A DNA stretch of 63,984 nucleotides, counting the filler. It is 13 parts of 13 records of this genome, joined end to end, with 100 filler letters (N's around TTAATTAATTAA, not from the genome) between each part and the next. Parts side by side here need not be neighbours in the genome. Positions count along the whole stretch, not along the records: positions 57,048 to 60,091 come from SRR7504441_9733; 12 more parts are not named here. One strand, 5' to 3'. Of this stretch, positions 3,937 to 63,791 are shown one piece after another; position 1 is the first letter of the stretch; each line of letters opens with the position of its first letter. Under the pieces are notes generated by a model, which saw nothing but the letters and a program-made list of their open reading frames with translations, was not told where the DNA came from and did no database searches. A program made the translations under genes and the position numbers.

Positions 3937-6267
3937 ACGGTCCTACTGATCCAGCCTCGGTGTTCGCGGTCGAGCGGGCGTGCAATCGCGCCCAGATAGA
4001 CGCGGCCATCAGCCAGTGCACCGCTCGCGGGGCCAAATTCGAGGACCCTGAATTCCCGGCGGGACCCCGGTCGATATCCCGCCCGCCGCACTCGAGGCCC
4101 AGCTGGGGGGAGGTAGTGGAGTGGGCACGGCCGAGCGCGAGTGCCCAGCTGTTCATAGGGGGACACGATCCCAACGATATCCAACAGGGTGCGCTGGGCG
4201 ACTGCTGGCTGCTGTCAGCCATGTCTGTGGTTGCCACCCAGCCGGCGATCATGGAGCACATGTTCGTGGAGGCCCGGCCGGACATAGGGCTCTATGTAGT
4301 ACAGTTCTTCAAGTGTGGGCAGTGGGTGCAGGTCATGATTGATGACCGGCTGCCCGTGGTGCCCAAAGGCTATCGGGTGGGTAACCTCAGAACGGGCGAC
4401 TTCATGCTCGGGCACGGCTCGGACATGAACGAGCTCTGGGTGCCCCTGTGCGAGAAGGCGTATGCCAAGCTTCATGGGTGCTACCAAGCCCTCGACGGAG
4501 GCGGTCAGCACAGCCCCAGGCCCAGCCGGCCGAGCGCGGTGGGCAGGGGTCGAGTACGGGCTGCGAGATCTATCCAGCGCCGCGCCTGACAGCTGCAGCT
4601 GTCAAGATCTGGATCCGGAGTCGTTCGAGGAGCTGCTCACCGACGTGGACCCTGGCACTGTTGTGATGGGCGGGTTCGCATGCATGGACAAGGGGCGGGC
4701 GAGCGAGTCTGAGCTGGCCAACGGACTGATCACCGGGCATGTAACCTCCCGGGCTAGACCGGTCGCTGAGCTGGAGGCGACAGGCTTATTCGCTACTCGG
4801 GATGGGTACGAGCGCCGATGGCGTCCGAGTGGTCAGGCTGCGCAATCCGTGGGGGCGCGGCGAGTGGAACGGCGACTGGTCTGATACGTCTAGCCGCTGG
4901 AACTCGGCCAATCGGCGTGCGTTGAATTACTCTCCAGATCAGACCGACAATGGCGAGTTCTGGATGAGTGTGCCCGACGCTCTGAGGCAATTTACTCAGT
5001 TCTACTGGGCGGAGCTCTTTCCGCACAGCTGGTCTCGTATGAGGGTGGCAAATCAGTGGAAAGGTCGGTCAGCAGGCGGATGCGTCAATCACGACAGCTG
5101 GGCACGCAACCCACAGATGTTACTGGAGGTGCCACAGCCCATCAAATCTCAGATTGTACTGACCCAGGAAGACGCGAGGCTCACTCCACTGAGCCAGAAG
5201 CACCACATTGGGTTTTATGTGCTGACAACCGACGATGGCCGGCCCAAGAAGCGCTGCTTCAAATCGGACATGGTTTGCCAGTCAGGTCCGCTGGTCAACA
5301 AGCGCGAGGTCTCGTGCGACATCGATCTGGCAGCCGGGCGATATTTGGTGGTGCCAAACACTTTCGATCCCGGCGAGGAGACTTCCTTCTTCATCACCGT
5401 GTTCTCTGATCGGCCATGCAGGTCACGTCTTGCTACTGTTTTAAGCGGATCTGGCGGGTGTGCTGACCAGTCGTGCGCAGGCTGGGTGGTGGAGTGGAGA
5501 TGGCAGCATCTGAGCCTGCTAGAGGGATGCCAGAGACCAGCTCGCACGGTACCACCGTTTAGCCTTGGCGACCGGTCGAGCGGCTGTCGGCCAGTGGACG
5601 GCCCGGCGCTCGACAGAAGTCATTCGTGGGAGGAGGAGTTCAACGATGAGTTGGATGACAATGAGCTCGACGACTTCATGTGGCAACAGGCGCTCTGGAC
5701 AGTTCGAAGCAACACCACAGACTATTTCCCTGATTCCAAGAGCATCCGGCCTGCTCCTCCCCCGCCGGTGCATCGCGGGTGAACTGGGCTGACGGTGGGC
5801 AGCCGGAGGAGGTGTTTGTGCCGGAGGACGACCTGCAGCTGCAGGGAGGCCGACCGTGCCCCAAGTGCGGTGGGGCTGGGTTCGATCCTAAGAAGCCCAA
5901 GAAGCAGTGCAAGAAGTGTAAAGGCAGGCCAGCGGAGCAGGGTAGTGCTGACCAGCTGTCCTGGCAGGGATGGGCTTCTTTGCTGACTCTGGCCGCCCTA
6001 CATCTGGCAGCATCAAAAAGAAGAAGAAGACCAAAGCTGAGAAGAAGGCCAAGAAGGAGAAGCGCGAGAAGGATAAGCGACCTAAGAGCCCAAAGAGGGA
6101 GAAATCCGAGAAGAGGGGGAAATCCGAGAAGAGGGAGAAATCCGAGAAGAAGGACAAGAAGGACAAGAAGGAACCCAAGAAGGATAAGGGAAAGAGCAAG
6201 GTATGCGCTCAGCCGATGCTGCTCTATAGCTATAATCCGCTTGGGCTTGCAGGAAAAGAAGAAGTAG
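3937..6267 (+). CDS. Calpain (CysPc + calpain III domain) with CxxCxGxG zinc finger and Lys/Glu-rich tail, 5' truncated
   Basis: DIQQGALGDCWLLSA (catalytic Cys), ITGH|AYSLL (His), LRNPWG (Asn). Domain III motifs W..RSAGGC..NPQ and YLVVPNTFDPGEE. Several short introns. Confidence 0.92.
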
Positions 6268-9737: not shown

Positions 9738-10957
9738 TCAGAAGCTCACATCGGCATAGATGAGCACATGGTCGCTCGGCTCGTCCTTGGAAGGGAAGGA
9801 CATGACTGCCTGCATGCTCGCCTTGGAAGCCAGCTGCTTGACTCCTGACACGTGCCACTCCGGGGATACCCAAATGTAATCGAGCGTCTCTATGAACTTC
9901 TCGCTGCTGCGCGACGAGAAGGCCAAGTTGGTGAATTCGGGCTCCTTCCCGGCGGCCAGAGCGTACACTGAGCGCATCGGGTCAAACTTGAGCTCGAGCC
10001 CTGCGACTGGGCTGCTGCTCTCAGGGTTCTGGGGGTGATCCAGCGGGAGGCTGCCGTTGGTGATTAGCTGGTACTGGGCCGAGCTCGGCTGGATGTTGAA
10101 GTCGCCGCCAACGATTAGCGGAAGTCCGTTGGCAAAGCGCTGCTGCGGTGTTAGGCAGGCATGGCTGGGGCGTGCCTGCGATTGCTTGAAGAGGAGCGCG
10201 GCGTGGATGGACATAACCTTGCACTTGTCGTCGCTCCCGAACAGGCAGGGCATGTGATAGGTCGCCACAGCGAATTCCTTCCCGCTCGGCTTGTGCCGAA
10301 GCTTGGCCATCACAACCGCGTTGTGCCTCCCCTCGGCTACTTTCCAGGGGTCAAACGGGGGCCGCCCCGGCTTCTGGTTCGTCAGCCGGCCCCACCAACC
10401 CAGCCCCGGCGGCTTGGGCCAGTCGGGCCATCCGTCCACTGTGTCGGCTACACGCACGGTGCTCACCTGTCCCCAGCTGAGCAGCCGGCGGCCTCGCGCT
10501 CGCCTCCACGGCTGCGAACTTGTCAGCGGGCCAGGCCAGACACTGGCCCATGTACCCGCCGAACTTGGATCCGGTCAGTCCCGCCGCATAGGTGTATCTG
10601 CCTCCAGCTGCCGGGCCGGCCGGGGTGTGGGCACCCGTGCCGCTCGAAAAGCGGGACGAGCTTGGCCCCCCAGTGCCGGCTGATCTCCTGGAGCGAGAGC
10701 ACCGCCCCCTGGGCCATCTGGGCCTCCAGCTGGGCCACCACCCGGGCGAAACGGGTGGCTTCGGCCAGGTCTGCCGGGTCGCAGTGGTTGTAGTGGCTGG
10801 GCGAGTCCAAAGAGTCCGACAGCACGTTGTATTGCACCAGCCGGAAGGCCGCCGGGGCATCGCACCGGGCTTCGGTGGCGAACGAGCCCGCGGCGGCGCA
10901 GCTGAGAGTGAGCAGCCCCTTCCGGGCGCCGAGCCCGCGGCACAAGACTCGGTGCAT
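9738..10957 (-). CDS. Endonuclease/exonuclease/phosphatase family protein (CCR4/nocturnin/PDE12-like)
   Basis: Motifs QYNVL, LSLQE, TYHMP, GGDFN, TLDYIW and PSDH. Arg-rich transit-peptide-like N-terminus. GC-AG introns at 10503-10467 and 10175-10140. Confidence 0.88.
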
Positions 10958-56913: not shown

Positions 56914-57047
56914 GGATGACGGTCCTAGCTGAGAAAGACTGACGCCANNNNNNNNNNNNNNNNNNNNNNNNNNNNNNNNNNNNNNNNNNNNTTAATTAAT
57001 TAANNNNNNNNNNNNNNNNNNNNNNNNNNNNNNNNNNNNNNNNNNNN

Positions 57048-57110
57048 CTTGCCTATTTAGGGAATAATGGGGCGTCATGCTTGCCTGATTAGGGAATGAG
57101 CGGGTTGCAG
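57048..57110 (+). mobile_element. Repeated intron, family B (partial, contig edge)
   Basis: CTTGCCTATTTAGGGAA..GGCGTCATG..CTTGCCTGATTAGGGAA..CAG. Confidence 0.6.
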
Positions 57111-59836
57111 GTCCTAAAACTGGACGGCTCAGCTGTATCCCCTGAGGAAGCCGAACTGATCGCCCGCGCCTATGCCGACCTTCCCGCTGACCCCACATTC
57201 GAGCAGGCATTCTAACCGCATTTCAACCCGCTTTCTAACTGTTTCCTGTCAGGCCGAATCGAGCCTGCTTGCTGAAGGCTGGGCAGCGCTCCCGAAGGAT
57301 TCGATCGGGCTTGTCACGATGCACACAATCCGGTCCAATTTTAAGATGCTCCGAGGGCTGCTCGGCATAAGAGGCCAGCCAGCCCCCGCAGAGCCCGGCC
57401 CCTTGAGCGCGGAGAGGCTGAATAATAGCTATTTCCTGGAGCTTCGCGACAAAGTGCCCAACCGACTTTTTAACTGCTTTTAACGGCTTTTCAGGTGCTT
57501 TCGGGCGATCCGGAGGCGCTGGCTGCTGTTACTCCGGAGGCGGCGGAGAGCAAGTTGAAGAGCAAGCTGAATCAGTTATTCGATTTAATTGATTTCGATA
57601 AAGACGGCCAACTGACATATGACGAGATTGAGAGAGTTATCGGAAGGTAACTGTCAGATTTGTGGCCTGAGACCGGCCGAGCGCGGTTGCAGGCCGAATC
57701 TGCTGATGCTACTGGCTCAGATTCCCGGCGGGCTGCCCGGGCACACCCCGCGCCAACGGCAGGTATGTTAACACCAGCTTGCCTGATTAGGAAATATTGG
57801 GACGTCATACCTGCCTGATTAGGGCATGTTGGCAGGCGGTGAGTCGGGCCGAGTTTATGGACTTTTTCGATAATCAAGTTTCCGTTATTGGGCCGGGCTT
57901 AACTTTCAAGCTGGTGGCGGCGCTCTGTCAGGACGAGGGCAAGAACCGCCAGGTGCCTTCCAAATAAGGAAATTTGGGACGTCATACCTGCCTGATTAGG
58001 GAGTGCAGTGCACGCTCCAGGCTGGGAGCAACTTTGAGCATGAAGTGACGCGAGTCTACACGCTGCTCGACGCCAACATGGTGTTAAGCGCACCTTCCTA
58101 ATAAGGAAATGATCTGTTAACAGGACCATTCGGTCGACTCGGACGAGCTGCGCGCCGTCTGGGGCCAGAGTGGGTCGCTTCTTGCTCGGGCATTGGATGT
58201 CGACTCCAACGGGCTCATTTCGCTCACGGAATGGAGAAGGTTCTGGGGGCAGGTACTTGCCTAATTAGGAAGTTTGGGACGTCAGACTTGCCCGATTAGG
58301 GAATAATAATCCGGGGCAGCTGGCGGCCAATCAGGGCAATGCGCTGGCGGATTATCAGTTGGGCTTACTCACGGCGAGAGTTGAGAAATGCCTCAAAGTG
58401 CCGGCCCAGGTGCAGGCCAGCTGCCTAGTTATGGAATGATTCGGGTTCAGGTGCAGAGGCTGTCGACCGAGCTTGCCAAGGAGCATCCGGGCGCGCTTTA
58501 ACGGCTCTTAACTGCTTTTAACGGCTTTTCAGGCGCCGAGTACTCGAAACTTGAAATGGCTCTGCTCTCGCCCAAATTGCACCAAGTGGCTGTTGGGATT
58601 TGAAGTGGCACTAACGGACTTTTAGGTGGCGGTTGAGGCTTTTAGGATCGTCGACTCTGATCGAAGCGGCACGATAGAAAAGCCGGAGCTTTTCTCGCAG
58701 GTGCGCCTAATTTTAGCAAGTGCTGACCGGCACAGTCGCCTAATTAGGGAATAATCAGGTTAATGCTGAGGGTGGGCAGGGCACTGCGCTGCAACCGACA
58801 GCGGAGCGGACGCTGAGGTTATCTCCCGGGGAGGAAGTGCTGCTGGTGCTTTGGAAGGTGTGTTAAGTGTACCTTCCTTATAAGGGAATCATCTGTTAAC
58901 AGGTGCTCGATCAAGACGGCGACAACAAGGTCAGTTCAGACTGTGTTATTTATACTTGTATCTAGCTAATGCTGTGGTCTGCTTCTCTCGCCCACAAGAC
59001 CTTGTTAAGGATACAAGTAGCAGCATAGAGCTACACATAGCTAGGTGGTGAGATATCGGCCTACAGGTGAGTCTGGACGAGTGGTGCCTCTTCTGGCAAT
59101 GGGTGAGACTTTCAGCAACCGACTCTAACTGACGTGCGACTTTCAGGTCCAACATGAGACTTCCGCCGAGGAGTGCTTGTCTGGGCTGGAACTGGTTATT
59201 AGACAGCTGTCGCTCCCGGCCCCACCGGCCCCCGCGTGGGAGCTCTCGACCAGCGCGCTGCAGCTGGCTCGAAAGGCGTGTTAAGCGCACCTTCCAAATA
59301 AGGAAATGACCGGTTAACAGGGGTTCGCGATGCTCGATCTCGACCAGAACGGCACCATATCTCGGATCGAGCTCGCCAGTCTCAAATGCAATTGGGGACT
59401 ATTTTTTGTGCCGGCCCTTCAAGGGATACCCTCAGGTCCCTGACAACCAGAGCTGTTTTAAATCAAAAATGACGTTATTTGGGAGCAGATGAGGCGTTTC
59501 GGCGGGTGTGGCATCGGATGGATCCGAACGGGGACGGCCAAATAACGGAAGACGAGTGGCTCTGCTTTTGGGAGCATCTTCAGTCGGAGGCGGATCCTCA
59601 CGAGTGCGAGGTCCTACCTAGTTAGGGAATAAGAGGCGTCACACCTGCTTAGTTTGGGACTAATTTGAGTCCAGACTGAGCGGATTCAGGTGGCTTTGGC
59701 GCTGGTGTGTCACGAGCTGGCTGCACAAGATACCACAGCTGTCCCGTATGCCAGGTACGTGAGTCGATGGACGTGGCTAAGGTAATGGTTGGGTGACAGA
59801 GGTCTAAGGGAGAGCGAGTTGCTCGAGGCTCGTTGA
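57048..59836 (+). CDS. Multi-EF-hand protein with about 19 introns, 5' truncated
   Basis: Manual splicing restores a continuous frame with EF loops DFDKDGQLTYDE, DANM|DHSVDSDE, DVDSNGLISLTE, DSDRSGTIEKPE, DQDGDNK|VSLDE, DLDQNGTISRIE and DPNGDGQITEDE. Confidence 0.85.
57454..57494 (+). repeat. Repeated intron, family C
   Basis: Ends TTAACTGCTTTTAACGGCTTTTCAG, identical to the end of intron 58491-58532. Confidence 0.65.
57763..57835 (+). mobile_element. Repeated intron, family B
   Basis: Two GCCTGATTAGG cores around TTGGGACGTCATAC; also carries TGTTAACA. Confidence 0.68.
57953..58008 (+). mobile_element. Repeated intron, family B (with family A core)
   Basis: CCTTCCAAATAAGGAAAT + TTGGGACGTCATACCTGCCTGATTAGGG. 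Confidence 0.68.
58081..58123 (+). mobile_element. Repeated intron, family A copy 1 (candidate introner)
   Basis: G-TGTTAAGCGCACCTTCCTAATAAGGAAATGATCTGTTAACA-G; it splits an EF-hand loop. Confidence 0.75.
58253..58319 (+). mobile_element. Repeated intron, family B
   Basis: CTTGCCTAATTAGGAAG-TTTGGGACGTCAGA-CTTGCCCGATTAGGGAA. Confidence 0.68.
58491..58532 (+). repeat. Repeated intron, family C (GC-AG)
   Basis: Three tandem 10-nt units T(T/C)TTAAC(G/T)GC followed by TTTTCAG. Confidence 0.65.
58858..58902 (+). mobile_element. Repeated intron, family A copy 2
   Basis: 41-nt core 58861-58901 flanked by GGTG on both sides. Confidence 0.75.
59276..59320 (+). mobile_element. Repeated intron, family A copy 3 (GC-AG)
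   Basis: 41-nt core 59279-59319 flanked by GGCG/GGGG; the GC donor is needed to keep frame. Confidence 0.72.
59611..59689 (+). mobile_element. Repeated intron, family B (diverged)
   Basis: CCTAGTTAGGGAA..GGCGTCACACCTGCTTAGTTTGGGA. Confidence 0.55.
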
Positions 59837-60191
59837 TCCATCGTCAGTGGGCCATTCATCAGGCATTCATGATTGAGCACTTAGGTCGCCGTGATTAATT
59901 ACAATTAAGGCTAGAACATAGTCTCAAAAGAGCACATTGAGCTTTAAATATTAGTTCGATCTACTGTAGACATACTCGTAGTTTAAGCTGACTAATGCTG
60001 ACGGGTTAGCCATTTGAAGGGTGGGCAAAGACTTACTTGTAATATGTTCATGTGGCCTGGCGGGTGGACAAGGAGGCGGTGTGTGCCCCGANNNNNNNNN
60101 NNNNNNNNNNNNNNNNNNNNNNNNNNNNNNNNNNNTTAATTAATTAANNNNNNNNNNNNNNNNNNNNNNNNNNNNNNNNNNNNNNNNNNNN

Positions 60192-61525
60192 GTGCTCGAC
60201 TCTGGGCTGAGCGGGGCGGCCACCCACCTGCGGAACGCGGACGTCACCGCGCTCCAGAAGATCGAGCGGTCGCTGCACATTTACCGCGTGGATGACGACG
60301 ACGTCATTCTGCGCGACCGCGGGTGTGGAGTATACGAGAAGGTGCTCGCACGGCGGGCGGCTGGGGCTGAGACTGCTGGTTCAGGATCTGCTGGCGCCAT
60401 ACCGGTACATCTGCGAGGAGAAGGGCAAAGACATCCGGAGCAAGTTTATCCGAGCGTTCAACCAGGTCCATCCGGCCTGCACGGCCCGCCGCTGAGCCTC
60501 GGGCGGCCCAGTGGCTCGAGATTCCCGACGAGATGTGCGCCCAGGTGCTCGGAGCCAGCGGCAGCGGGGCTGAGTGTGTGAGACAGATCCGGCGGGTGAC
60601 GCAAGGACTGCACAACGCCAGTTTGCTGATCGATGACATTCAAGACAACTCGTGAGCCGCGCGCTGGATGTTTGCCCTCTCACCAACACTGTGCAGCAAG
60701 CTGCGGCGCGGGAGGCCATGCGCCCACCTGGTGTACGGGGAGGCGCACACCATCAACTGCGCCAACCACATCTATTTCCTGGCGGTGCAGGTGCAGCTGA
60801 GCACCGCGCGAGCGCTCAGGCTGCTCTGCAGGAGGTGCTCGATATGTCAAATGCTGAGGCTCTCCGCCTGTTCAATTCGGAGATGATCGAGCTGCACCGC
60901 GGCCAGGGGATGGACATCTGGTGGCGGGACGGCAGCCACCAGCGGGCCCCAGTGGAAGAGGAGTATCTATCAATGGTGAAGAAAAAGACCGGCGGCCTCT
61001 TCAGGTCGCTTGCATTCAGCTGGCTGGTCTAACGGACAGCAGGCTGTCCACCGGACTGATGGCGGCGCACAGCACCAACAAGATCGATCTGGTGCCGCTG
61101 CTCGACAACCTGGCCGTCTTTTTCCAGGTCGGTTGGCTGCAGGGCCGGCGGCGAGTGGGCGGCAGGTGCTGGACGATTTGCTCAACCTGGCCTCTGAGGA
61201 GTATCACACCAATAAGAGCTTCGCCGAGGATCTGACCGAGGGCAAGTTCTCGTTCCCGATAGTGTGGGCGATCGCCAAGGATTGTGACAATAGGATCTTG
61301 CCTCTGCTACGGCAGCGGACTGAGGACGAGGACATGAAGCGATATTTCATTAGGTACTTGGAGCAGCTCGGGGCCATGGACTATACGCGCAAGTACTTGG
61401 AGGAGCTGCGGGGGACGGTGATGGCCCAGATCGAGGATCTCGGGGGCAACAAGCTGCTCGTGGACATTCTAGAATACTTGTATGCCAAGATCCCTGCCGT
61501 GGAGGTGGTCGAGTCGAGTGATTGA
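60192..61525 (+). CDS. GGPS1: Geranylgeranyl diphosphate synthase (GGPS1/BTS1-type), 5' truncated
   Basis: [76 protein letters not shown]. Confidence 0.92.
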
Positions 61526-61669: not shown

Positions 61670-62365
61670 TTACGTGCCTTCAACGCCTTCAGGTGTATCA
61701 GGCGCCTCCTCGCACGTAGCAAAATCAAACGTGCTCGGGATGGCCTCCGGATAATTCGCGAAATAGGCAGGGAGCAGCGCCTCCCCGGCCGGCACCAGAA
61801 TGGCCACGGCCACCGGCAGCATCTTGCCCAGGTCTGCCATCGTCAGATGCAGGAATTCCTCCTCTTCGGGCTCCAGCCGATCCCCCGCCGCTCTCCGGGA
61901 CAGCAGCGGCTTGCACGCCTCGGCGTTGGCAGCCAGTGCATCCATCCCGTTGGCCAAAGGCCGAGAGGCCCGGTGGGCACGGTTCGAGAGCCCCTCCATT
62001 CGGGCGCTGGCTGCGGCGGCCATGCGGGCACCCAAGGCATCGATTTGGCTCAGCGGAGACTCGAACAGGGAGGTCAGTGCGCTGGGCTGCGCGGCAGCCT
62101 GGAACCCGATCCGGAGCGGCCGACCGGCCTGTCGGATGGCCTCCACCACCTGGCTGAACGGCTGGCCCGCGGTGGATTCGCCATTCAGGTGCACTAGCAG
62201 CATGCCCTCTGTCAGCTGCCCCTCCAGCGCCGCGCTCTTGACCTTTGTGATTCTGGCCGGCCCCGACGGCCCGGCCGCCCCGAGCTCCAGCCCGAGCGGC
62301 CCGGGCTCGGTCCAGCTGTGCTCCACCACCTCCAGCACCTTGTCCTTGTTCCTGATGAGGCCCAC
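61670..62365 (-). CDS. PDZ + LETM1-like domain protein, start codon unresolved
   Basis: GPLGLEL..LVHLNGES..FSQVVEAIRQAGRPLRIGF (PDZ); EEEFLHLTMADLGKMLP..VPAGEALLP..PEAIPSTF (LETM1-like). Confidence 0.72.
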   Translation of the reverse strand: MGLIRNKDKVLEVVEHSWTEPGPLGLELGAAGPSGPARITKVKSAALEGQLTEGMLLVHLNGESTAGQPFSQVVEAIRQAGRPLRIGFQAAAQPSALTSLFESPLSQIDALGARMAAAASARMEGLSNRAHRASRPLANGMDALAANAEACKPLLSRRAAGDRLEPEEEEFLHLTMADLGKMLPVAVAILVPAGEALLPAYFANYPEAIPSTFDFATCEEAPDTPEGVEGT

Positions 62366-62384
62366 TTTTTTTCCAGCCAGCTCG

Positions 62385-63791
62385 ATGATGGCGGGGTCAT
62401 CTGCGACGGCCGAGGGTTGTTGGGACGAGCTGTACGACCTCGTTGTGATCGGGGCCGGGCCGGCCGGGCTAGGGCTGGCGGCGCACGCGGTGGAGCGCGG
62501 GCTGCGGGTGTGCTTGCTCGACCGGAATCTCGACCGGCCGTGGCATTGCACGTACTGCAACTGGACTGACGATCTGGACCAGATAGCCTGGCTCGACCAG
62601 CCACACCAGCTGTTCGACGTGCGCTGCCCGGAGACGATCGTTCGTTACGCCGACGGCGGGACCGAGCGGCTCGGTCAGGGGTACGGCCGGATTGACGGCC
62701 CTCGGCTCCAGCGGCAGCTGCGGGGCGTGTTCGATGCCAGTGGGCGTGGGAAGGCGGTGCAGGCGTCGGCGGACCGGGTGGAGCACTACGAGGAGAGCAG
62801 TGCTGTCTGGTGCCGCGGGCTGGACCGGCTGCTGGCCGGGCGCGTGGTGGTGGACTGCAGCGGGCACTACAGCCATTTCCTGGACTACGCCGCGGGCGCG
62901 AGTCGCAAGTGGCAATCTTTCCACGGGGAGGAGCTCCGGTCGGCCGAGCCGCACGGGTTTGACACCCGCCAGATGGTGCTGTTTGACTGGCGCCAGCCGG
63001 AGCCGTCCGACGCGCTCCCGCCGCTGTTTGCGTACATCCTCCCCATCGACCAGCACACAGTGTTCGTAGAAGAGACCTGCCTGATCTCGCCCGGACGCGT
63101 CAGCCTGGACGCGATCGCCCGGCAGCTGCAGCACCGGAAGCGGGCGCTTGGGCTGGCCGGGGCCGAGGTGATCAGCAGCGAGAGCTGCAGCTTCCCTATG
63201 GGCGGTGCACTGCCTGTGCTCCCGCAGCGCGTGCTCGGGTTCGGGGCAGCCGCCCGGATGGTGCACCCGGCCACCGGGTACAGCGTGGCGTACTCGCTCA
63301 GGATGGTCCCGCGGCTGGTCGACTGCCTGTGCGATTCGATCAGGTCCGGTCGGTCCGGCCCGGAGCTTGCCGCCCGGGCCTGGGAGCAGGTTGTATGGCC
63401 GGCCGACAAGGTGCGGCTCTACCGCATCTACTCGATGGGCTCGCACGTGCTGACTCAGCTGAGTGTCGGGCAGCTGTGCGCCTTCTTCCGGGCGTTCTTT
63501 GCGACCGGACCGGCCAAATGGATGCCTTTCATGTGCAGGACTGACTCGGCCAAGCGGATTGTGAGCTCGATGGTCAATATGTTCCTGATAGCCCCGATGG
63601 AGATCAGGCTCCGGTTGGTGTGGGGCGCGGTCACAAACGGCGGGTTCGAGCTGGTGCTGGCAGTGCTAGCGGCCGTGTGGAAGGCGGATCCGACCGATGG
63701 CCAGCCACGCTCCGACCATCGGGACAACGAGCGGGAGCCCATGCTTAACCCAGCAAGTGTTGTGGTGAGTACGTCCGACACGCCGGCCTAA
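62385..63791 (+). CDS. crtL: Lycopene cyclase, CrtL/LCY-type
   Basis: YDLVVIGAGPAGL, Y..W.DD, GYGRID, MVLFDWR, F.Y.LP...VFVEETCL, E...FPMGG.LP, FGAAARMVHPATGYS; intronless. Confidence 0.9.
   Translation: MMAGSSATAEGCWDELYDLVVIGAGPAGLGLAAHAVERGLRVCLLDRNLDRPWHCTYCNWTDDLDQIAWLDQPHQLFDVRCPETIVRYADGGTERLGQGYGRIDGPRLQRQLRGVFDASGRGKAVQASADRVEHYEESSAVWCRGLDRLLAGRVVVDCSGHYSHFLDYAAGASRKWQSFHGEELRSAEPHGFDTRQMVLFDWRQPEPSDALPPLFAYILPIDQHTVFVEETCLISPGRVSLDAIARQLQHRKRALGLAGAEVISSESCSFPMGGALPVLPQRVLGFGAAARMVHPATGYSVAYSLRMVPRLVDCLCDSIRSGRSGPELAARAWEQVVWPADKVRLYRIYSMGSHVLTQLSVGQLCAFFRAFFATGPAKWMPFMCRTDSAKRIVSSMVNMFLIAPMEIRLRLVWGAVTNGGFELVLAVLAAVWKADPTDGQPRSDHRDNEREPMLNPASVVVSTSDTPA

Follow-up and report, generated by a model that had tools for sequence, protein, structure and literature searches.

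How new introns come about has been asked for a long time, and the best-supported answer at present is introners. We describe here a set of short, repeated introns in a gene for a multi-EF-hand protein, found on a single contig within a 63,984-base stretch of DNA composed of 13 contigs (hereafter, the window). Three of these introns share a near-identical core of 41 nucleotides (nt), bounded by TGTTAA and TTAACA, which an earlier look at the same DNA (the original prediction) had proposed as a new introner resembling a miniature inverted-repeat transposable element (MITE). We interpret them, with the chances for and against this interpretation about evenly balanced, as an introner-like, copy-derived family of minimal introns in an intron-dense gene of a marine eukaryote whose introns generally measure about 40 nt.

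Several described systems offer themselves for comparison. Introner-like elements of dinoflagellates have inverted ends, 4- to 8-nt duplications that supply splice sites, a bias toward phase 0, and GC donors (10.1101/2020.10.14.339549); introner families of marine protists (the dinoflagellates Symbiodinium and Polarella, and Aureococcus) carry a class-specific target-site duplication (TSD) fixed at 4, 5, or 8 nt and occur in many genes, with copy numbers in the hundreds to thousands. In Amoebophrya, introner elements combine inverted repeats of 8 to 20 nt with direct repeats of 3 to 5 nt (Farhat et al. 2021, PMC7789003); most of these introns are non-canonical, with mean lengths of 120 to 240 nt. 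In Micromonas, a GC-rich marine picoeukaryote, the introner elements (IE) are spliceosomal introns that are both short and repeated; IE-A1 often has GC donors, and IE-C averages 67 nt, has 221 copies genome-wide, and contains a GACTGACG branch motif (Verhelst et al. 2013, PMC3879977). The BOC1 introns of Mamiellales are numerous, small (40 to 65 nt), and AT-richer than their exons, and the part of the GC-rich marine genome that contains them is lower in GC (Moreau et al. 2012, PMC3491373; PMC3879977); they are singletons without conserved motifs (PMC3879977). Finally, fungi contain same-gene duplicated introns, few per genome and usually in pairs, which have unduplicated flanking exons in half of the cases and for which transposition within the transcript has been suggested (Collemare et al. 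2013, PMC3609843). By the operational rule in use, an introner family comprises four or more copies, located in genes that belong to different paralogy groups (Gozashti et al. 2025, PMC12130899).

Like the introners of marine protists (Symbiodinium, Polarella, and Aureococcus), the introns described here are similar sequences with short inverted ends at unrelated positions (10.1101/2020.10.14.339549). They also share with these introners splice sites that derive partly from a flanking protosplice site (AG|G), a strong phase-0 bias, and frequent GC donors, but the three copies have no TSD above background and a far shorter unit (41 to 45 nt), and the similar copies, counted across the window and three sequence collections, number 3 (10 in a wider family), all of them in one gene. 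End inverted repeats able to form a hairpin, direct repeats at the borders, the lack of an internal transposase, and a marine protist host are features in common with the Amoebophrya elements (PMC7789003). Here, however, the introns have an inverted repeat of 6 nt, direct repeats of 2, 5, and 3 nt, GT/GC-AG ends, and lengths of 43 to 45 nt. The likeness to Micromonas IE is one of short repeated, presumably spliceosomal introns, with GC donors among them, in GC-rich marine DNA; unlike IE-C, the copies carry another motif and are confined to one gene, and the host is not Mamiellophyceae-like. Like the BOC1 introns, those described here are numerous, small, AT-richer than their exons, and situated in DNA of lower GC content, but they are repeated rather than singletons, and the marker proteins of the window do not point to green algae. 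A host within the Mamiellophyceae, with the contig placed in its low-GC outlier region, was considered and rejected on the basis of the marker proteins and of the singleton nature of those introns. What is demonstrable at this locus corresponds to the fungal same-gene duplicated introns: the introns are near-identical and, within the available sequence, confined to one gene, and the exons are not duplicated, as in the "transposition" half of that category. The fungal cases differ in number and structure, since 12 of 18 introns here have a partner and are built of modular units. Notable in the present case are the very small size and the dominance of one family in a single gene.

The 13 contigs of the window are 3.0 to 8.1 kb long, with GC contents of 0.537 to 0.661, and are joined by linkers of the form N44-TTAATTAATTAA-N44 (for example, at 56948-57047 and 60092-60191); genes on either side of a linker have no genomic linkage. 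All three cores are confined to piece 12 (57048-60091; 3,044 bp), which has the lowest GC content of the 13 pieces (0.537).

The pattern TGTTAA-N29-TTAACA occurred three times in the window, at 58082-58122, 58861-58901, and 59279-59319 (copies 1, 2, and 3), compared to 0.00 occurrences expected from 100 dinucleotide-preserving shuffles. When both strands of the entire window (63,984 bases) were scanned, no further 41-mer with 16 or fewer mismatches to copy 1 was found. In pairwise comparisons, 36, 38, and 33 of the 41 positions were identical (80 to 93%). The eight variable positions all lie between positions 8 and 34 of the core, leaving the 7 bases at each end invariant, and a central palindrome, TTCC-N6-GGAA, is present in all three. 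The cores are flanked by GG/GG (copy 1), GGTG/GGTG (copy 2), and GGCG/GGGG (copy 3). The observation of the original prediction is confirmed: the three near-identical cores lie where it had placed them, and the flanks are as it had given them. The right end of the core is itself palindromic (TGTTAACA, with GTTAAC in copy 3), and the terminal 6 bases are therefore an inverted and a direct repeat alike, two readings between which sequence alone cannot decide. The introns containing copies 1, 2, and 3 (I6, I12, and I15, respectively) have GC contents of 0.40, 0.38, and 0.47 and lie at phase-0 sites, ATG|G, AAG|G, and AAG|G. Copies 2 and 3 can be aligned over the full 45-nt intron, including its first three bases (GTG and GCG).

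Removal of these sequences is needed for the reading frame of the host gene. After excision of 17 introns, each with GT/GC-AG ends, the frame is open over at least 568 amino acids and contains seven 12-residue loops that match an EF-hand loop pattern. The gene model was built by hand and checked by script; automatic chaining of introns for the longest open reading frame (ORF) had yielded an implausible model, which the frame-checked hand model replaced. Without splicing, copy 1 shifts the frame, whereas copies 2 and 3 each introduce an in-frame TAA. The EF-hand loop at residues 233 to 245 (DANM|DHSVDSDEL) is present only after excision of 58081-58123. For copy 3, three excisions with ends of standard type keep the EF-hand frame: a 45-nt GC-AG at 59276-59320, a second GC-AG of 54 nt, and a GA-AC of 48 nt; no GT-AG excision of this copy does so. 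The frame and the EF-hand loops together suggest that the three sequences are minimal spliceosomal introns, spliced as modeled. The lengths of 43, 45, and 45 nt, which agree with those originally predicted, were set by the reading frame rather than by RNA.

Of the 17 complete introns of the gene, 14 are in phase 0, an unusually strong bias; three are GC-AG introns, and most lie in a CAG|G or AAG|G context. GC content ranges from 0.38 to 0.61 in the introns compared to 0.50 to 0.70 in the exons. Ten of the 17 introns are 40 to 46 nt long, and all seven readable introns of a prenyl-synthase gene on piece 13, whose removal restores an open frame there, are 38 to 46 nt long. The intron optimum of about 40 nt proposed originally is thus supported, provided that the two contigs come from one genome.

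The three introns occupy different positions relative to the EF-hand loops. Copy 1 lies after residue 4 of the loop at 233 to 245, copy 2 two residues before the loop at 401, and copy 3 five residues before the loop at 468. Exon flanks are identical at 11 to 15 of 30 positions (37 to 50%), as opposed to 33 to 38 of 41 in the cores, and the border between the two is abrupt. Local alignments of the 60-nt left flanks were no better than those of shuffled sequences (the scores were reached by 51 to 273 of 300 shuffles). For the right flanks, two pairs scored slightly above the shuffles (reached by 3 and 5 of 300), as expected from their shared loop codons. Because the loop positions are non-homologous and the similarity ends at the exon borders, the three introns would not be leftovers of EF-hand unit duplication. 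The original prediction had described the exon positions as unrelated and had named homologous EF-hand positions as one finding that would speak against it; the loop-relative positions and the flanks confirm the description and argue against such a placement.

The three introns belong to a wider set of related introns in the same gene, which the original prediction had missed. We compared all 18 introns (17 complete introns and I0, which is cut by the contig start) with each other, using the maximum of 3,000 shuffled comparisons as the threshold. Ten of the 18 (I0, I4, I5, I6, I7, I8, I11, I12, I15, and I17) formed one similarity cluster, in which I5 connects the three 41-nt introns to the remaining members. 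A second pair, I2 and I9, raises to 12 the count of introns that have a partner; the two share TTAACTGCTTTTAACGGCTTTTCAG at 97% identity over 29 nt, a sequence unrelated to the first family. No reverse-strand matches were found among the 18 introns. In alignment, the family unit is about 20 nt long, with CCTNATNAGG as its near-palindromic core: (A/C)CTT(G/C)CC-NNNT-(A/T)AGG(A/G)AAT. The 41-nt introns contain one unit, and the 56- to 73-nt introns contain two, with TTGGGACGTCAT between the units. Since I4 has the end motifs of the short type, the short introns resemble one-unit forms of the long introns, or vice versa. Within this larger family of the gene, the 41-nt introns thus appear to be the members with a single unit. 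Coordinates are given in Table 1.

Table 1. Host gene and related introns on piece 12 (positions refer to the whole window).
Feature	Positions	Strand	Length (nt)	Remarks
Host gene, multi-EF-hand protein	57111..59760	+		17 complete introns and one cut by contig start; 5' end missing, 3' end undefined
I6 (copy 1)	58081..58123	+	43	GT-AG, phase 0; core 58082-58122; interrupts EF-hand loop
I12 (copy 2)	58858..58902	+	45	GT-AG, phase 0; core 58861-58901; splits K and V, 2 residues ahead of loop DQDGDNKVSLDE
I15 (copy 3)	59276..59320	+	45	GC-AG, phase 0; core 59279-59319; splits K and G, 5 residues ahead of loop DLDQNGTISRIE
I0	57048..57110	+		Two-unit relative, cut by contig end
I4	57763..57835	+	73	Two-unit relative; 5' end GTATGTTAAC and 3' end TGTTGGCAG like 41-nt type; 6-nt boundary repeat GGCAGG
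I5	57953..58008	+	56	Two-unit relative; first unit CCTTCCAAATAAGGAAAT matches copy 3
I7	58253..58319	+	67	Two-unit relative; 7-nt boundary repeat GGGGCAG
I8	58410..58450	+	41	Weak cluster link (score 26 vs null maximum 24); 9-nt boundary repeat CAGGTGCAG
I11	58701..58758	+	58	More distant family relative
I17	59611..59674	+	64	More distant family relative
I2	57454..57494	+	41	Shares TTAACTGCTTTTAACGGCTTTTCAG with I9
I9	58491..58532	+	42	GC-AG; partner of I2

We looked for signatures of transposition at the intron boundaries by measuring the direct repeat of each intron against a control of mismatched donor and acceptor pairs from the same gene, which allows for the splice consensus. Over all 17 introns, the mean boundary repeat was 4.35 nt compared to 3.43 nt in the control, and 2 of 20,000 permutations attained the observed mean. 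I8 (9 nt), I7 (7 nt), and I4 (6 nt) account for the excess. It hints that introns in this gene originated through DNA-level insertion accompanied by duplication, although not specifically the three with the 41-nt core. Two particular models of duplication were tried and rejected: a TTAA (piggyBac-like) duplication would leave 10 nt behind and break the frame, and the fixed dinoflagellate TSD models (GHNN and AGGH) match copy 2 alone, copy 3 having one mismatch and copy 1 two or three. Folded as RNA, all three copies are predicted to adopt the expected two-stem shape, composed of the 6-bp terminal stem and an inner UUCC/GGAA stem.

One public sequencing run, a seawater RNA library, matches the contig (0.06 of the sampled words). 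It yields two 151-nt contigs at a depth of 3, which cover only 57853-58001 and 58065-58214. The first runs from an exon into intron I5, across its 5' border; the second joins copy 1 to the downstream exon and has 16 letters to the left of copy 1, so that just the 3' border of this copy counts as bridged. Two differences separate the second contig from the window: A>C at 58103, inside the central palindrome's loop, and C>T at 58144, in a third codon position, where Asp is kept. A slightly different allele therefore also has the element at copy 1, and the sole population sample is thus an occupied one. With the difference at 58103, the palindrome of copy 1 reads CCTAATCAGG in the RNA-library contig and CCTAATAAGG in the window; CCTAATCAGG equals, in reverse complement, the CCTGATTAGG motif that the two-unit introns carry.

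A number of observations weigh against an introner-like family. The boundary repeats of the three copies are 2, 5, and 3 nt, unequal in length and not in excess of the background (null mean of 3.43); the supposed TSDs are what G|GT..AG|G contexts give alone. The three copies thus do not have the constant-length, family-specific TSD of introners, and the flanks cannot be upheld as the TSD for which they had been taken. The terminal inverted repeat of the original prediction, TGTTAA/TTAACA, is invariant in all three copies; it is just 6 nt long, reads equally as a direct repeat, and forms folds indistinguishable from those of shuffled sequences (z-scores of -1.48, -0.82, and -1.95). Transposase families, which had been suggested as a check, were absent from the Pfam matches of 44 ORFs in the window. 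The family motifs were not found in the other 12 contigs (61 kb). The 3 copies, like the full set of 10 members, are located in a single gene on one 3-kb contig, and none of the seven introns of the other intron-rich gene, the prenyl synthase of piece 13, is related to the family. Splice junctions had likewise been proposed as a check, and both RNA-library contigs at the locus are unspliced, with no joint among them; such a library may contain DNA. The unspliced contigs are no proof against splicing, and no junction is confirmed by them. The MITE-like introner is plausible and supported in part, by the intron nature of the copies as judged from the frame and the EF-hand loops, by their non-homologous sites, and by their size; the TSD failed its control, and neither an empty site nor, in the window and the three collections scanned, a copy outside the gene was found.

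Accounts of the similarity that dispense with copying into new sites fit these data poorly. The gene is built of repeated EF-hand units, and such units may have been duplicated together with an intron that constraint or gene conversion then kept alike while the exons diverged, a course with which the slight excess in the right flanks of two pairs would agree. The differing loop-relative positions of the introns and the abrupt fall from 80 to 93% identity in the cores to 37 to 50% in the flanks speak against such segmental duplication, which we regard as disfavored and improbable. Unrelated introns might also come to look alike if splice and branch signals filled most of a 40-nt intron. The invariant parts are indeed the two 7-nt ends, and CTAAT or CTGAT within the central palindrome presumably resembles the branch-site consensus, which we counted in favor of convergence. 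However, introns of the same size in the gene (I8, I10, and I14) and all seven introns on the neighboring contig do without the motif, and the identity of 33 to 38 of 41 runs through positions with no known signal, so that convergence retains a very small likelihood. A similarly slight chance attaches to the sequences never being removed, the gene being a decaying pseudogene or its model wrong. The two unspliced RNA-library contigs would be expected in that case, and two exons have no homologue in very large protein collections, but 17 GT/GC-AG excisions restore a frame of 568 amino acids with seven EF-hand loops, and the only exonic change that the RNA-library contig shows (58144 C>T) is silent.

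It is quite probable that the three introns arose by copying of an intron-sized unit. As to how the copying took place, insertion of a miniature element at the DNA level is our tentative choice, held with somewhat less than even confidence. A short, intron-sized unit would have been copied into three non-homologous phase-0 sites as a miniature, non-autonomous element, bringing along a 3' splice site of its own (..GTTAACAG) and the greater part of the 5' site (G[T/C]GTGTTAAG). The spliceosome would then excise the inserted element, and the 6-bp terminal pairing may draw the two splice sites together. A possible but less likely course is that an excised intron was reverse-spliced into protosplice-like sites of its own transcript, followed by reverse transcription and recombination, which needs no transposase, terminal inverted repeat, or TSD. 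The copies all lie in one gene, in one orientation, and at phase-0 RG|G sites, as such intragenic transposition would have it. Their TSDs are not above background, and copies 2 and 3 align across the whole intron, so the copied unit may be the intron rather than the 41-nt core; fungal same-gene duplicated introns without duplicated exons provide a precedent (PMC3609843). On the other hand, copy 1 is shorter by 2 nt at the 5' end, which would require an extra deletion, and the 6- to 9-nt boundary repeats of I4, I7, and I8, with the gene-wide excess reached by only 2 of 20,000 permutations, are not predicted by reverse splicing. The confinement to one gene may merely reflect the small part of the genome seen. 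A bolder reading is that of a minimal introner, a hairpin-ended unit of 41 to 45 nt that creates new introns and is no longer than the shortest workable intron of the host; it would belong to a modular family, with one or two CCTNATNAGG units, from which over half of the gene's introns would stem. We offer this reading as a speculation that is rather doubtful at present.

If the introner-like interpretation is true, the family would show how far an intron-generating unit can shrink. The clustering in one gene would offer a case for separating DNA transposition from transposition of introns within a transcript. Were the minimal introner genome-wide, its unit would be shorter than any intron-generating element compared here, the average for IE-C being 67 nt, a claim on which published tables of introner sizes may bear; the family would then also be one that is shrinking toward the minimal intron size of its host or spreading locally within transcripts. 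Evidence from one 3-kb contig makes this a lead, not a result.

Copies were also sought outside the window. Scans for TGTTAAGNNNACCTTCCNNNTAAGG gave one locus each in metagenome_contigs and in genome_contigs (prokaryote), both within one and the same coding stretch of cyanobacterial type, which lacks the right end; we attribute these matches to chance. Neither TGTTAAGNNNACCTTCCNNNTAAGG nor the two-unit motif GGGACGTCANNCNTGCCNGATTAGGG was found in viral_contigs. The host organism is probably not in the three collections scanned, so these blanks say little. Searches with the host gene were similarly silent: exon 58124-58255 had no match among longer proteins at an E value of 0.01 or less, and exon 57253-57453 had none among 1.84 billion protein representatives. 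Rfam gave no match at the gathering score across the window and none at an E value of 1 or less across piece 12.

The rest of the window encodes eukaryotic proteins, including a calpain with domain III, Sec7, Rap1_C, and ankyrin. GC content at third codon positions is 0.69 in the host gene and 0.53 to 0.86 in nine ORFs on other contigs, and it neither ties the EF-hand contig to the remaining window nor separates the two. The calpain gene (3939-5779; Peptidase_C2 and Calpain_III) is split over two ORFs. Profile positions 153 to 214 are missing between 4586 and 4745, and there is therefore at least one intron or frameshift at this place; the best relatives are metazoan calpains, at 29 to 37% identity. 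An ORF on the negative strand (9741-10574) has an Endonuclease/Exonuclease/phosphatase domain (E value of 1.4e-8) and may belong to a retroelement or to an ordinary phosphatase.

On piece 13, the prenyl (GGPP-type) synthase gene with its seven GC-rich introns is found a short way upstream of a lycopene cyclase ORF that has no introns (60192-61525 and 61767-63788), and Pfam polyprenyl_synt was matched on the last exon of the synthase. The closest relative of the cyclase is a transcript of Oxyrrhis marina, at 45% identity, followed by bacterial cyclases at about 35%; in the protein atlas, it matched bacterial cyclase clusters only. The synthase and the cyclase may form a carotenoid or retinal gene pair, with a cyclase perhaps of bacterial origin.

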